This document shows positions 14,905-21,533 of a DNA stretch of 32,486 nucleotides, piece by piece. Made by a program: the position numbers and the translations under genes. Where the stretch lies: the sequence record MF630922.1, one strand, 5' to 3'. The stretch's first letter is position 1, and each line of letters starts with the position of its first letter. This stretch comes from Escherichia phage IMM-001. Under the pieces are notes generated by a model. The model did not search any database and was not told where the DNA came from. It was given only the letters and a program-made list of their open reading frames with translations.

Positions 14905-15564
14905 ATGGCCCATCTCAGCAATGGCACCCAAGTCTTCGTAGAAGGTAGTAGGGGTGAAGCTATCAACGTAACCGCAATTTCTAATGCGGCTAACCCTGTT
15001 TTTACCGTGGCTGCCAGTTCAGGCTTAGCGGTTGGTGACTACATTCTAGTAACCAGCGCATCATCTACATTTATGGCAGATAAGCAGCTTCGCGTAACGG
15101 CAGTTTCAGACACTAGCGTCACGGTTGAAGGCATTGACACCTCCAATGTCACCAAATTCCCAGCTGGCGGAACGGCTGAAATCGTTAAGATTCTTAGTTG
15201 GTTTGAGATTCCTTGCGTTCAGGACGTATCAACTGACGGTGGCGAACAGCAGTTCGTTAACTTCCAGTGCTTGTCCGATGACCGTGAGCAACAAATTCCA
15301 ACTTACAAGTCTGCGGTAACAAATACCTACACGTTCGCGCACGAATACACCAACCCGGTATATCCTATTCTGCGTAACTATGACGAAGCTGGTACTGTTG
15401 TTGCTATCCGTATGTTTGTACCTCGCGCTAGTGAGATGCGTCTTCAGTCTGGTACCATCGCCTTTAACGACACCCCAAGCATTGGTGTCAACGAAATCGA
15501 AACGGTATCCATCGCGGTATCTATCCGTGGCAGGCTGAGTTCTGTAGCATCTGAACTGTCATAA
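14905..15564 (+). CDS. major tail protein (219 aa)
   Basis: Position before chaperones and tape measure; strong terminator after it. Confidence 0.55.
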   Translation: MAHLSNGTQVFVEGSRGEAINVTAISNAANPVFTVAASSGLAVGDYILVTSASSTFMADKQLRVTAVSDTSVTVEGIDTSNVTKFPAGGTAEIVKILSWFEIPCVQDVSTDGGEQQFVNFQCLSDDREQQIPTYKSAVTNTYTFAHEYTNPVYPILRNYDEAGTVVAIRMFVPRASEMRLQSGTIAFNDTPSIGVNEIETVSIAVSIRGRLSSVASELS

Positions 15565-15571
15565 AAATTAA

Positions 15572-15593
15572 CCCTCTTCGGAGGGTTTTTTAT
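15572..15593 (+). terminator. Rho-independent terminator
   Basis: ccctc-ttcg-gaggg then T6. Confidence 0.75.
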
Positions 15594-15672: not shown

Positions 15673-15924
15673 ATGAACAACGTAAAAAATATCATCAAAC
15701 TTGCTGCTGCTCTTGGTGCTTTCTACCTGGCAATTCAGATTGTCAACCCAACTAGTGGCGCAACAGCAAACTCTGATGCAATAAAGTATGAAACTAAATT
15801 CAATAGCGCATATTCATACTGTGAAAAAGTTGCTGGAGACAAGGTTAATCAGATCATGACTCATGGTCGCGAAGTGTGCACAGAAGTTGCTCACAAAATT
15901 GCAAAAGAAGACGAATCAAAGTAA
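15673..15924 (+). CDS. small secreted or membrane protein (83 aa)
   Basis: N-terminal hydrophobic stretch LAAALGAFYLAIQIV after a Lys-containing n-region; two Cys in mature part. Confidence 0.45.
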   Translation: MNNVKNIIKLAAALGAFYLAIQIVNPTSGATANSDAIKYETKFNSAYSYCEKVAGDKVNQIMTHGREVCTEVAHKIAKEDESK

Positions 15925-15959
15925 TATAATCATTCAACACAAACAAAGGAGATAATGAG

Positions 15960-16274
15960 ATGGCAAAATTTAAACTTTCACTTAAGGCGCTTCCTGACTT
16001 TAAACTTCCAGTTAAGTTTCAGCTGGCTAATGGTGAAGATGCTGAAGTAGTACTAACAGTTAAGCACAAGAAATCATCTGAGTTGCAGGAGATTCTTAAT
16101 CGTGAAAACTTCAGCACTAAAGAATTGATTAGCGAAATCTGCTCTGACTGGGATTTAGAAGAGCCATTTAACGATGAAAACGTAGATGAGTTTGCAAACC
16201 TTTTTCCTGGCGCTGTTCCATCACTGATGGATAGCTACATGAAAGCGCTTGCAGGTCAGCGAGTAAAAAACTAA
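15960..16274 (+). CDS. tail assembly chaperone, lambda G-like (104 aa)
   Basis: Position before tape measure; ends with slippery heptamer. Confidence 0.6.
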   Translation: MAKFKLSLKALPDFKLPVKFQLANGEDAEVVLTVKHKKSSELQEILNRENFSTKELISEICSDWDLEEPFNDENVDEFANLFPGAVPSLMDSYMKALAGQRVKN

Positions 16275-16588
16275 AACGCGCAGTATACCTACAATACCAG
16301 TCGCCGCCAACGGATTCCGAACTTGAAGCTATAGGAATGAAACGTTCCGACTACGAAGGTGAAGAGCCCGAGGAGTTATTCTTCGATGAAACAATGATGC
16401 AAAGCTGGGATGTGTACTGTGCTATGTCAACACAATGGCGAGTAGGAGCTTGCGGCGCCACAGGTCTTGATTACAATTGCCTTCCATTCTTGTTCAAAGT
16501 CTATAAAATAGATGATGAAGAAATGGCACTTAACGATATCAGAATACTTGAGGCTAAAGCCTTAGATATGATGAACGCCAAGAAATAG
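15960..16588 (+). CDS. tail assembly chaperone GT-like fusion via putative -1 frameshift at A_AAA_AAC (16265..16271)
   Basis: The -1 frame is open from 16235 through 16588 and overlaps the end of the G-like ORF; the downstream ORF has no convincing RBS. Confidence 0.5.
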
Positions 16589-16613
16589 CCATCCTTCGGG
16601 GTGGCTTTTTTTA
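16587..16613 (+). terminator. Rho-independent terminator
   Basis: agccatcc-ttcg-gggtggct then T7. Confidence 0.7.
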
Positions 16614-16626
16614 TTATGGAGACAAT

Positions 16627-19599
16627 ATGGCAACTAACGAAATTGCTGGTATCACGCTAGCCGTCGACGTCGCTCAGGTCGATAGAGGTACGCAGTCCTT
16701 ACAGAAATTCAGGCAAGCAAACGAGCAAGCTGCAACAGGCATTAATAGCTTCGTTAATGCTGAACTTGTAGCCAAGACTCAAGCAAGGGATACAGCAAGG
16801 CAGCTTGAGGAGCAGCGAAAATCTTTCGCATCGCTTCAGCAAGTAATCGACCCAACTGCTGCTAAATTCCAGAAGTTGCAGAAAGCGGCAACCGAATTGG
16901 ACAAAGCATTTGAGTCTGGGCTGGTTCCTGATGATGAGTTCTTCAGGCTTGGCTCTGTTATTGAAACTCAAATTAATAAGCTAAACAGGTCCAGGGCTGC
17001 GTTGAGTGAAGAGGGTAGGGCTGCACTCCAAGCTTCAATAGATAAAGAAAAAGCAACAGCAACCGCGCAAAAGTTCATTCAATCCCTTGAGAACGAGGCG
17101 AATGCGGCAACTCTCACAAGGACTGAGCTGCTTCAACTTAAGGCTGCTCAGCTAGGCGTTAGCGACCAAGCGGCACCGATTATCGACAGGATTGGTAAGG
17201 CCGCTGAGGCGTCAGCAGTTCAATTGCAGAAGCAAAGCTCAGCTTTTGTTAAGTCAGGTTTAAGCGCAGGGCAGTACAAGCAAGCAATACGACAGCTCCC
17301 TGCTCAGATTACAGATATCGGAACCTCACTTGCTGGCGGCATCCCAATCTGGCTGATTGCAATTCAGCAAGGCGGTCAGATTAAGGATAGTTTCGGCGGT
17401 ATTGCGAACACGGCAAGGTTTGCACTTGCGGCCATTAATCCATTGACAGCTGTTGTTGGTACTTTGGGGCTGGCTCTTGGTGCTCTTGGTGTTGCAGCTT
17501 ATCAGGCTGATAAGAACACTCGCGGACTAGCATCAACGATAACGCTTGTTGGCAATTCAACTATCACTTCAACGGCACAGATAAATCAGGTTGTTGACGG
17601 GATTGAGAAAACAACATTAGCCACGCGCGGTCTTATTCAGGAAATAGCAAATAGTCTGGTAGCAAACGGTAATCTTACGCTTACGCAGATAGATAAGATA
17701 ACCAAGGCAACAGCGCAGTGGGCGACTGTAACATCAACCGACTCAAAGACTATCCTTGGATACTTTGACCAGATCACAAAGGACCCAATAAAGGGACTTA
17801 CTGACCTTGATAAGCAATTTAACTTTCTTCAGTATGGGCAGTTAAAATATATTGAGAATATCAGGAAGACGGCTGGAGAAACAGAGGCAGTAACCGCAGC
17901 CACTGAACTATTCGCTGAAGTTATGGAAAATAGGCTAGCAGACGTAGCGCTAAGCCTCAACCCTCTTGAAAGCGCGTGGAATAGCTTCAGGAAGTTTGTA
18001 AGTGAGATCTTGGATGACATCAGCAAAAGGACGCTTGGGGCCCTTAACTTAATAACTGACGTTGTTGCTGGTACGATTGAGCAGATAAGGTCACTCATAA
18101 ACTCCGGCGACATTCTCTTGGGTGAGTTTGCTATAGCAGCAACCAAGACGCTTCAGTCAATACCCGGCCTTGGTGATATAGGTAATGAGGCAATTGCTGA
18201 GCAGCAAAAGATTGTTGATGCAGCCAAGAAGCAAAATGAGGAGTTAGCAAAAAGCATATCTGAGCGAGATGCTAGAATCAGGAAGGGTGAGCTTGGCTAT
18301 GTGGAGAGAAATAATAACACTAACCTGAATGGAAATAATGCATCAACTGATAAGGAGTTCGGAGCAAGGAAGAAGGCCCTAGCAGACGAGCTTGATGCCA
18401 TAATGAAGGCTAGAAGGGAGAGGAACAAAGCTGTAAAAGAAGAAAGGGATTTAACCTTATCTTATGAATCTGGCGTTCTTGCACTTCAGGCTCAATTGAA
18501 GGTTTTGCAAGAGCATAGAACGATAAACGATGTAATAAGCAACGAGCGCAAGCAGCTATTTCAGGAAGAGGCTAAGTTTGCAATACTCGAGCAAAGATAT
18601 GCTGATGGTAGCCTAACCAAGTCTCAAGCCAAACTGCTCTCGCAGAAGGATATCATTCTTGAACAGGCTAAACAGAAGGCTGAACTAGGAGATCAGATTG
18701 TTCTTCAAGAGAGGTCAAACAAGTTACTTGATGATAACCTAAAGAAGACTGTTCAGATTACAAATGAGGCAAATAATGTTTCTCTTGCTGCTAATTTATC
18801 TGACAGGGAGAAGCAAAGGGCGAAAGAGCTTCAGGCGCTTCAATCCAATCAGTTAAACAAAGGTGGCTCTGTAGATGACGCTGATTTCCAGGCTTTACTG
18901 GAAGCAAGGCGTAATTTTTATGCTCAAGAGGACGCGCTACGTGAAAACTGGCTAGCCGGTGTGCAGTCATCATTCGCTAATTGGGCAGAGAGCGCGACAG
19001 ATGCATTTTCTATAGCTGGTGAATTGACCACTTCCGTGTTTACCGGAATTACAGAGCAGATTACCAGCCTTGTAACAACTGGCACGGCAGACTTCAGGAG
19101 CTTTACCGTTGAAATCCTGAAACAGATTGCCAAGATTGCAACACAGCTCTTAATTGTTAAGGCGATTGAGTCAAGTTTAAGCAGCTTCGGCGGAACTGGC
19201 GGCGCTATTGGTTCAATTGGTGGCGCGCTTGGCTTTGCTGGCGGTGGATATACTGGTGATGGAGGTAAGTACCAACCTGCCGGAACTGTGCACAAAGGTG
19301 AATTTGTTTTCACCAAAGAAGCAACCAGCAGGATTGGAGTCAAGAACCTGTACAAGCTTATGCGAGGTTATGCAAATGGCGGTGCTGTTGGTGGGCCATC
19401 TGGTTATGCTAATGGTGGTGCTGTCGGCGGTACTAATGTCAGTGTTGGCGGCGTTACTGTTAACGTAAATTCTGGAATCGGTGGCGGCAATGATGCTAAG
19501 GCTATAGAATCTGGAGTTAAGGTTATCGTGGCTGAGGAAATCAGTAAGTCATTCCAGCAGGGCGGCAGGGCGTATCAGTTCTTGCGCGGTTACAACTAA
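16627..19599 (+). CDS. tail tape measure protein (990 aa)
   Basis: Long helical protein with hydrophobic central segments and Gly-rich C-terminus, after chaperone pair. Confidence 0.85.
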
Positions 19600-20020: not shown

Positions 20021-20776
20021 ATGGCAAGTGTAAAGTTTGAAAACCAGCTTCAATCACTATTTCCTGGTGAGGTAGTCACACTTATTGAGGTTGATGGCAG
20101 CAAGTTTGGCGCAAGGGTTTACAGGTTTCATGGAGAGGACATCTCATACACGCCAGAGGAAATCATGCAAGCCCAAACATCTGGTCAGCCACTACCATCC
20201 AAGACAATCACGTTCCGTGGCGAAGAGTATGGAGCCAGGCCTTTCGGCATTAGCGGCATCAACCTGACTTCTGACGGCAAAGCAAACAAGCTCACGCTAA
20301 TTCTATCAAACGTTGACCAGGCTGTTTCCGCACTCATACGTCAGTATAATGGTATGGTTCAGGCCAAGGTGACAATCTGGGTTACTATCAGGGATAATAT
20401 CAATGAGGACGGCAGCATTGCAGATGGCGATTATCGTAAGATGGTTTACTTTATTGAGCGCCCTAAGCAGGTTGACTACAAAACTGCCTCTTTTGAGTTA
20501 TCTAGCCCAATTGATATGGATGGTATTTATATTCCAGCCAGGCTAGTCCAGTCAGTATGCTATTGGGCTTCCCGTGGCTGGTACCGCAGTGGGAATGGTT
20601 GTGCTTATGCTGGTAATCGATATTTTGATAAAGACAATAATCCTGTTGATGACCCTGGCCTAGATTTCTGCGCCGGAACTGTTGACGCCTGTAAGTTAAG
20701 GTTTGGCGAGAATAACCAATTAGATTTTGGCGGTTGTGCCTCAGCAAGTTTGCAAGCTAAGAATAATCAGAACTAA
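20021..20776 (+). CDS. minor tail protein, lambda L-like (251 aa)
   Basis: C-terminal cysteine cluster as in L-family tail-tip proteins. Confidence 0.65.
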   Translation: MASVKFENQLQSLFPGEVVTLIEVDGSKFGARVYRFHGEDISYTPEEIMQAQTSGQPLPSKTITFRGEEYGARPFGISGINLTSDGKANKLTLILSNVDQAVSALIRQYNGMVQAKVTIWVTIRDNINEDGSIADGDYRKMVYFIERPKQVDYKTASFELSSPIDMDGIYIPARLVQSVCYWASRGWYRSGNGCAYAGNRYFDKDNNPVDDPGLDFCAGTVDACKLRFGENNQLDFGGCASASLQAKNNQN

Positions 20777-20786
20777 GGGGAGTAAA

Positions 20787-21533
20787 ATGCTTACACCAAA
20801 AGTTAAACTAGAAATCATGCGTCACGCAAAAGAGGATTTCCCCAACGAATGCTGTGGTGTAGTCACCCAGAAAGGCATGGCTCAGAAGTACCATCGAATC
20901 ACCAACGCGTCTAAAGACACTGAGAATGAGTTCATTCTTGATGCTGGCGAGTACATGAAGATTAGTGATGAAGAACAAGTTGTTTACATTGTTCACTCAC
21001 ATACGGGAGATGGCGCGACTACTCGTCCAAGCCCTGCTGATATCTGTAGCTGCAATGAGTGCGAGATTCCTTACGTGATTGTTAGTTACCCTGAGGGGGA
21101 CATGAGAATTCTCGAGCCTGAAGAAATGCCGCTAGCAGGAAGGCCGTGGGGACTTGGTAGCTTCGACTGCTGGGGCTTGATAATGTCCTTCCACGCAAAA
21201 CACGGCGTAAAACTGACTGACTACCGAGTTAATTATCCATGGTGGAACAAGGAGTACGACGAAAATATCTACGACGACAATTGGATTAAGGAAGGATTTG
21301 AGCTAGTCGAAACTGATGATATTCCTGCTGGCTCCATGATTATGATGCAGATTCAAAGCGAGACAACAAATCACGCAGGAATCTACGTTGGAGATAACAA
21401 GTTCTTGCACCATCTTTACGGTAAGATGAGTAAAGTTGATACCTACAGTGATTACTGGCGAGAGCGCACCGTTCGCATCGTTCGCCACAAAGATTTACCA
21501 GAAGGAGCAAGCTACAATGCAGAGACTGATTAA
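20787..21533 (+). CDS. tail assembly protein, lambda K-like (248 aa), JAB/MPN + NlpC/P60-like
   Basis: HSHTGDGATTRPSPADI matches JAMM H-x-H-x7-S-x2-D; Cys/His in C-terminal half; ATG 20787 with RBS aaggggag. Confidence 0.75.
   Translation: MLTPKVKLEIMRHAKEDFPNECCGVVTQKGMAQKYHRITNASKDTENEFILDAGEYMKISDEEQVVYIVHSHTGDGATTRPSPADICSCNECEIPYVIVSYPEGDMRILEPEEMPLAGRPWGLGSFDCWGLIMSFHAKHGVKLTDYRVNYPWWNKEYDENIYDDNWIKEGFELVETDDIPAGSMIMMQIQSETTNHAGIYVGDNKFLHHLYGKMSKVDTYSDYWRERTVRIVRHKDLPEGASYNAETD

Follow-up and report, generated by a model that had tools for sequence, protein, structure and literature searches.

The tail assembly chaperone genes G and T of Escherichia phage IMM-001 are very probably expressed through a programmed -1 ribosomal frameshift of the lambda G/GT type, as comparison of their sequences with those of other T1-like siphophages indicates. 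The locus has the anatomy and the family identity of such a pair, its putative shift site is conserved among relatives, and the reading frame under selection switches there. The frameshift is already known in kind, being the homolog of one described in T1-like phages with a textbook mechanism. The main value of the analysis is a correct annotation, join(15960..16271,16271..16588), and the finding opens no new question. The window analysed here is the whole stretch of 32,486 nt in the IMM-001 record (MF630922.1). IMM-001 is a T1-like siphophage; its best matches were Escherichia phages TR2, TR3, Rao1 and CY1 (~94% nucleotide identity), which are classed as Drexlerviridae, Braunvirinae, Christensenvirus.

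Anatomy of the G/T locus

The features of the locus, all on the + strand, begin with the Shine-Dalgarno sequence of G, AAGGAG, read from the sequence at 15946..15951, 8 nt 5' of the ATG at 15960. Its duplex with the anti-Shine-Dalgarno (anti-SD) sequence has an energy of -8.7 kcal/mol, among the strongest in the window. The ORF of G (15960..16274) encodes the short product, a tail assembly (tape measure) chaperone of 104 aa and 11.8 kDa, and its 3' end reads ...CGA GTA AAA AAC TAA. These last codons, GTA AAA AAC TAA, place AAAAAAC (16265..16271) in the X_XXY_YYZ register, and we checked that the slippery heptamer A_AAA_AAC has AAA (Lys) as its P-site codon and AAC (Asn) as its A-site codon. 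The stop codon of G, TAA (16272..16274), lies directly 3' of the heptamer; the -1 frame reads across it as C-TA/A.., giving Leu and then Lys or Arg.

In the -1 frame, a TAG at 16232..16234 is followed by an open stretch that begins at 16235 and ends at another TAG, 16586..16588. The frames of G and T are thus both open over 40 nt (16235..16274), and a shift must fall within this overlap, because the -1 stop at 16232..16234 bounds it on one side and the G stop at 16272..16274 on the other. We found only one in-frame X_XXY_YYZ sequence in the 40 nt, A_AAA_AAC. The original prediction had G ending just after this heptamer and the -1 frame running without interruption from 16235 into an ORF at 16337..16588; coordinates and register proved exact, no stop codon occurs before the TAG at 16586..16588, and the ATG at 16337 is in frame.

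From the heptamer onwards, the -1 frame extension (the T segment, 16271..16588) comprises 105 codons and a stop codon. Its first 22 codons form a linker (16271..16336) in which ATG, GTG and TTG are absent, so that in IMM-001 the linker would be translatable only by ribosomes coming from G. The first ATG, GTG or TTG in the open -1 stretch is the in-frame ATG at 16337..16339, where gene callers start an 83-aa protein called 'TfmS'. In the conceptual GT fusion, which has 209 aa and a mass of 23.9 kDa, this codon probably does no more than encode Met127.

The local pattern by itself is only modestly unlikely. The bare heptamer AAAAAAC is not enriched in the window (12 copies, 9.2 expected), and the chance expectation of an in-frame X_XXY_YYZ within the 13-codon overlap is ~0.04, or 0.024 with Y = A or T. 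Long -1 extensions past a stop codon are frequent in the densely packed genome of IMM-001; we dropped the long extension of G as stand-alone evidence, because five other genes have longer ones through ordinary gene overlaps. Since the local pattern is only modestly unlikely, the case rests on identity, synteny and comparison. Conservation across genomes raises the site far above chance.

Family identity and gene neighbourhood

G matched the Pfam family Phage_TAC_4 (PF08748) over residues 1-104, corresponding to profile positions 1-124 of 124, with an E value of 9.6e-32 and a score of 110.3 bits against a gathering cut-off of 21.1, which makes it a member of that family. The T part likewise belongs to DUF1799 (PF08809): the domain lies at 16334..16573 (fusion residues 126-205), with an E value of 2.2e-13 and a score of 50.7 bits against a gathering cut-off of 26, covers profile positions 2-80 of 80 and carries the invariant motif TQWR...G..G.DY. 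In addition, phrog_17368 (213 positions) spans fusion residues 1-208 (E 1.6e-88), an end-to-end match which shows that phage proteins annotated as full-length fusions already exist. A tblastn search with the fusion matched 1096 phage records, with query coverage of at least 80% in 1029; nearly all of the matches listed came in two pieces, with the frame change at the same place.

A search of PDB sequences with the fusion profile returned chance matches only (E about 1) and no sequence-detectable relative, and NCBIfam has no model for the fusion. The AlphaFold (AF2) model of G was confident (pLDDT 85.9) and that of T fair (77.9); the models neither help nor hurt the frameshift interpretation.

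The two same-strand ORFs lie between the gene for the major tail (tube) protein (14905..15564, +; Pfam Phage_tail_3, E 7.4e-68; phrog_584, major tail protein) and the gene for the 990-aa tape measure protein (16627..19599, +; TMP_2, E 6.9e-49; Tape_meas_lam_C, E 2.7e-19; phrog_24, E 6.9e-238), the presumed client of G/GT. The order is major tail gene, G, T and tape measure gene, followed by homologs of lambda M, L, K and I. That the pair follows the conserved G/GT arrangement upstream of tape measure genes had been part of the original prediction, and it is borne out by this synteny, by the Phage_TAC_4 and DUF1799 assignments and by the conservation of the site in relatives described below.

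Several observations concern the neighbours themselves. The TR2 record gives the name 'major capsid protein' to the homolog of the major tail (tube) protein. In the lambda K-like tail protein (20727..21533, +), a Prok-JAB/MPN domain is joined to an NlpC/P60 domain; the TTG listed as the start of its gene creates a 50-nt overlap with the preceding L-like gene, and translation therefore probably begins at a later codon. One additional small ORF (15673..15924, +) separates the tail tube gene from G. It encodes 83 aa with a hydrophobic N-terminal segment (MNNVKNIIKLAAALGAFYLAIQIV...), has no Shine-Dalgarno sequence and matched phrog_22925 of unknown function (E 1.5e-28); no Pfam match and no NCBIfam model were found for it. 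A homolog is present in TR2, OzMSK and SCS31 and absent from Stevie, W011D and T1. A possible explanation is a moron for a small membrane or secreted protein, inserted after the terminator of the tail tube gene.

Terminator-like hairpins flank the G-T pair. A consensus scan located one of them, AGCCATCC-TTCG-GGGTGGCT followed by a T run, at 16587..16613 (+), where it overlaps the stop codon of T and sits 14 nt 5' of the tape measure ribosome-binding site (RBS). The other, also with a T run, lies at 15570..15587 (+), 3' of the major tail gene. Terminators are annotated at the equivalent places, after the tail gene and before the tape measure gene, in T1 and Stevie. The two hairpins around G-T suggest stepwise transcriptional attenuation across the tail genes.

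Conservation of the shift site among relatives

AAAAAAC forms the last seven bases before the G stop codon in 11 of 15 annotated relatives, and those that have it span four Drexlerviridae subfamilies and Dhillonvirus. In phage T1 the site is at the same codon position and reads GCA AAA AAC TAA. Two more distant relatives, a Pseudomonas phage and a Ralstonia phage (~30% protein identity), have another canonical heptamer, G_GGA_AAC, there with an adjacent TGA.

We also examined a sample of 80 IMG/VR loci that is independent of the annotated set; 74 of them were interpretable and had the same architecture. A_AAA_AAC followed by TAA was found in 58 of these 74, GCA_AAA_GTY in 11 and GCA_AAG_GTC in 5, the latter two types having a core of A_AAA_G or A_AAG_G only. 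TAA adjoins the shift site in all 74, and the 16 relatives without the full heptamer keep both the -1 frame T extension and the junction peptide. These 16 partial cores show that members of the family can do without the full heptamer, which implies single-tRNA-Lys slippage or a lower-efficiency site in such relatives. Heptamer-less relatives were L007 (phiEB49), L009 and L010 (Klebsiella Webervirus), L048, L052-L056 and L083-L095.

The remaining 6 of the 80 loci were odd and were attributed to A5/A8 differences in homopolymer length or to multiple frame breaks. In one of them, L081 (IMG/VR metagenome contig 3300014001_000014, ~1800-1830; 34% identity), an A8 run, CGCGAAAAAAAACTGAGG, puts G and T in one continuous frame of 212 codons; either the assembly has the wrong homopolymer length, or GT is naturally fused there. 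In L058 and L080, an A5 run sets T at +1 relative to G.

Selection changes frame at the heptamer

We then compared pN/pS in the three frames among 13 genomes by the Nei-Gojobori method (NG86). Over the last 30 codons of G, pN/pS was 0.47 in frame 0, 1.35 in frame -1 and 1.08 in frame +1. The order was reversed in the 22-codon linker after the heptamer, with 1.44 in frame 0, 0.29 in frame -1 and 1.48 in frame +1, and the T core gave 1.02, 0.42 and 1.33, respectively. Thus the heptamer marks the exact point where purifying selection moves from frame 0 into frame -1. The junction peptide ...AGQRVKN/LKRAVYL.YQ.PPTD.ELEA.G... (the slash marks the junction) is kept despite many synonymous changes, for example among CGC, CGG and AGG for Arg and between GCA and GCG for Ala. 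As the criteria of Xu, Hendrix and Duda (2004) for G/GT pairs ask, arrangement and site are conserved together, and coding constraint crosses the junction into the new frame, with T overlapping the 3' end of G in the -1 frame at a correctly registered slippery sequence.

RNA structure around the site

Downstream of the heptamer in IMM-001 (16272-16319), we found no stable structure: predicted folds had energies of -4.1 to -11 kcal/mol and z scores of +0.8 to +1.2, and a stable conserved structure 5-9 nt after the heptamer is absent. A site can be of the G/GT type without a 3' RNA stimulator. RNAalifold gave no consensus structure for 12 mixed junctions.

Among 54 distinct junctions, about 25 have a GC-rich bipartite hairpin that starts 6-7 nt after the heptamer, (G)GGCGGUU..UCUG-N6-CAGAARCCGCC(C), with energies of -14 to -20 kcal/mol and z scores of -2.4 to -5.3. 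Its carriers are T1, Tempevirinae and other Tunavirinae, and the junctions that have it include those of Stevie, W011D, Sfin-1, Henu7 and Pocis76; loci with the hairpin were L002, L003 (for example L003:1813-1850), L006, L008, L015 and L096. At similar spacing, hairpins that differ in sequence occur in Dhillonvirus EE09 and a Pseudomonas phage. The GC-rich hairpin is absent from the IMM-001 lineage (with TR2), Guelphvirus and Rogunavirinae. The hairpin is a probable lineage-specific stimulator of frameshifting, and we found no description of it in the T1-like phage literature examined. Because lineages differ in having it, the hairpin lends itself to a small, manageable comparison of what determines frameshift efficiency.

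The IMM-001 lineage has CGC GCA GTA where the 5' arm of the hairpin would be, so that its site seems to be made up of just the heptamer and the UAA next to it. Because the downstream hairpin is missing, frameshift efficiency in IMM-001 may be very low; the adjacent stop codon of G could conceivably contribute a stimulatory pause.

Two further candidate elements were set aside. GCAGGT, 8 nt 5' of the heptamer, resembles an upstream Shine-Dalgarno-like stimulator, but its bases are those of the Ala-Gly codons GCN GGN, and we rejected it because the third positions of these codons vary freely among relatives. The paper on phage Rogue1 noted the non-classical shift site of its lineage and mentioned a 'downstream pseudoknot'; this element was unsupported by our folds of phiEB49-type sequences, which covered simple secondary structure and gave z scores of +0.8 to +1.7.

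Alternative explanations

The frame-specific selection bears directly on whether G and T are instead two independent genes, with T translated from ATG 16337 as a protein of 83 aa (9.7 kDa) and the heptamer a coincidence of the Lys-Asn C-terminus of G. The in-frame ATG does exist and is used by gene callers and depositors ('TfmS' in TR1, TR2, TR3 and CY1), 83-aa T protein clusters are present in databases, the annotator of OzMSK remarked on an 'independent RBS' for the downstream part, and the lack of enrichment of the bare heptamer in the window would also fit a coincidence. However, nowhere in the region is purifying selection stronger than in the 22 codons 5' of this ATG, where it acts in the -1 frame (pN/pS 0.29), yet these codons include no start codon. 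Among 57 distinct junctions, 43 have a Leu codon (TTA, TTG or CTN) in the position of the ATG, 12 have ATG and 2 have TTC. Moreover, the first possible start in the -1 frame scatters over relatives from codon -41 to codon +43 and none is conserved, which leaves the downstream ORF without a conserved translation start of its own. In 18 loci the first such start comes 41 codons in, inside the conserved domain; owing to such a late start the T1 record can call only the 55-aa ST39, and the range of 74 to 103 aa among database 'T' proteins results from arbitrary start choices. The ORF at 16337 had been predicted to lack a good RBS, and this held: anti-SD pairing at functional spacing is -0.2 kcal/mol, compared with -8.7 for G, -6.4 for the tape measure gene and a median of -5.6 for 33 candidate starts, and is worse than at an average random position (mean -2.3); the sole AGGA near the ATG directly abuts it. 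The G stop codon, 63 nt 5' of the ATG, is too distant for termination-reinitiation coupling, and both phrog_17368 and three curated records take the G-T product as one protein. Two independent genes are accordingly very unlikely, and a frameshift that joins G to T is preferred. Some independent synthesis of T from the in-frame ATG may nevertheless accompany the frameshift. A system of three products, in which free T from ATG 16337 would compensate for weaker frameshifting beside G and rare GT, is conceivable in Christensenvirus, Guelphvirus and Rogunavirinae, where hairpin loss coincides with the gain of Met at fusion residue 127; we consider it improbable. If it were true, it would be a natural experiment on the tuning of the GT:G ratio.

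The homopolymer at the junction raises two other explanations. RNA polymerase could add one A to the A6 run, giving an A7 mRNA (...GTA AAA AAA CTA...) in which G is in frame with T and the junction reads VKK-LKR. The site is indeed a homopolymeric A6 run that a single extra A would bring into frame, and variants in run length occur among database sequences (A5 in L058 and L080, A8 in L081), although they are most simply sequencing or assembly errors. Productive runs in bacterial transcriptional slippage are generally ~9 or more A or T, so that A6 is short by this general standard. Relatives with no homopolymer keep the arrangement, at G_GGA_AAC in Pseudomonas and Ralstonia phages and at GCA_AAG_GTC or GCA_AAA_GTY in Rogunavirinae and Webervirus; such sites fit tRNA slippage and not polymerase stuttering. 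The strict X_XXY_YYZ register relative to the frame of G is also conserved, and polymerase slippage would need none. We thus give transcriptional slippage little credence. The same A run might hide a sequencing or assembly indel, with G and T being one continuous gene, or T lying in another frame, as the altered frame relationships of the A5 and A8 loci L058, L080 and L081 could be taken to show. Against this, T1, whose sequence dates from the Sanger era, has the identical A6C and TAA with the -1 relation, and so do 11 of 15 independent GenBank genomes and 58 of 74 IMG/VR loci, obtained on many platforms; all 63 G homologs in the database end at a length of 103-107 aa. A recurrent identical sequencing error is not credible, and the chance that an indel explains the locus is close to nil. 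Ribosomal frameshifting is favoured over both: the original interpretation as a programmed -1 frameshift is supported by comparison, and every sequence-level prediction for the lambda G/GT type was found at the locus.

Proposed mechanism

We propose that termination at the TAA of G would release the 104-aa chaperone from most ribosomes. The minority that slip by -1 on A_AAA_AAC would do so with tRNA-Lys at the P-site codon AAA and tRNA-Asn at the A-site codon AAC; the slipped tRNAs would re-pair with AAA_AAA, and reading in the -1 frame would resume at CTA (16271) and yield the 209-aa GT, ending at 16588. In the IMM-001 lineage, where no downstream RNA stimulator is evident, the heptamer and the adjacent UAA would have to suffice. 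The analogy with lambda suggests that both products bind the tape measure protein through the G part that they share, that the rare GT recruits the tail tube protein with its T (DUF1799) part, and that neither G nor GT stays in the virion. A fixed low GT:G ratio would, on the same analogy, be the purpose of the arrangement. The occurrence of slippage, its efficiency, the tandem-slip geometry and the functions of the proteins are what we infer.

A_AAA_AAC is among the g-t shift sites used by tailed viruses, it is much less shift-prone in E. coli than A_AAA_AAG, and lambda tail assembly needs a low ratio of ~1 GT per 30 G (all PMC5009743). In the searchable literature, we found no experimental demonstration of the frameshift for any member of Drexlerviridae.

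Annotation and significance

Records of related phages differ in how they treat the locus. The curated records of Citrobacter phage Stevie, OzMSK and Hafnia phage Pocis76 have a two-piece joined CDS at G/T, and the papers on Stevie, U136B and Skenny describe the frameshift. Two separate genes are annotated, and a joined GT is absent, in TR1 (OP087522), TR2 (OP251154), TR3 (PP069512), CY1 (OQ357823), Rao1 and T1's own record (NC_005833); in TR1 and TR2 these are a 104-aa 'tail assembly chaperone' and the 83-aa 'TfmS'. Such separate-gene annotation hides the 209-aa GT product. G and GT matter for the engineering of T1-like phages, because lambda tail assembly depends on their ratio. In addition, a 2026 preprint reports that the bacterial immune receptor Avs17 senses the N-terminal core common to both tail assembly chaperone isoforms.

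Comparison with known systems

One counterpart is lambda G/GT, where a programmed -1 frameshift occurs at G_GGA_AAG (Levin, Hendrix and Casjens 1993; Xu, Hendrix and Duda 2004, 2013, 2014; PMC5009743). As in lambda, IMM-001 has two overlapping ORFs between the major tail and tape measure genes, the downstream one in the -1 frame and lacking a conserved start of its own. The products resemble those of lambda in size, homologs of M, L, K and I give the remaining tail module a lambda-like character, and an RNA stimulator is not evident. Unlike lambda, IMM-001 uses the heptamer A_AAA_AAC with the G stop codon immediately after it, and its proteins belong to the Phage_TAC_4 and DUF1799 families; Pfam reported no lambda-family domain in G or T of IMM-001 at E <= 1.

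A further parallel is found in IS1 insA-insB', dnaX and other bacterial -1 frameshifts, in which slippage of E. coli tRNA-Lys on an A-run heptamer likewise gives fused ORFs at a set low ratio. IS1 insA-insB' slips on A6C and dnaX on A_AAA_AAG. The biology of these systems, a transposase and a replication clamp loader, is unrelated. Furthermore, dnaX has AAG in the A site, an upstream Shine-Dalgarno-like element and a downstream hairpin, and no such stimulators are evident in IMM-001.

The remaining known systems are the direct homologs in T1 (ST40/ST39), Stevie (CPT_Stevie15/16), OzMSK, Pocis76, U136B and Skenny, with 45-98% identity over the fusion. IMM-001 differs from T1, Tempevirinae and other Tunavirinae in lacking the GC-rich hairpin 6-7 nt downstream, and from these T1-like pairs in having Met, not Leu, at fusion residue 127. 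It has in common with them the heptamer, the adjacent TAA, the junction peptide, the synteny and the flanking terminators.
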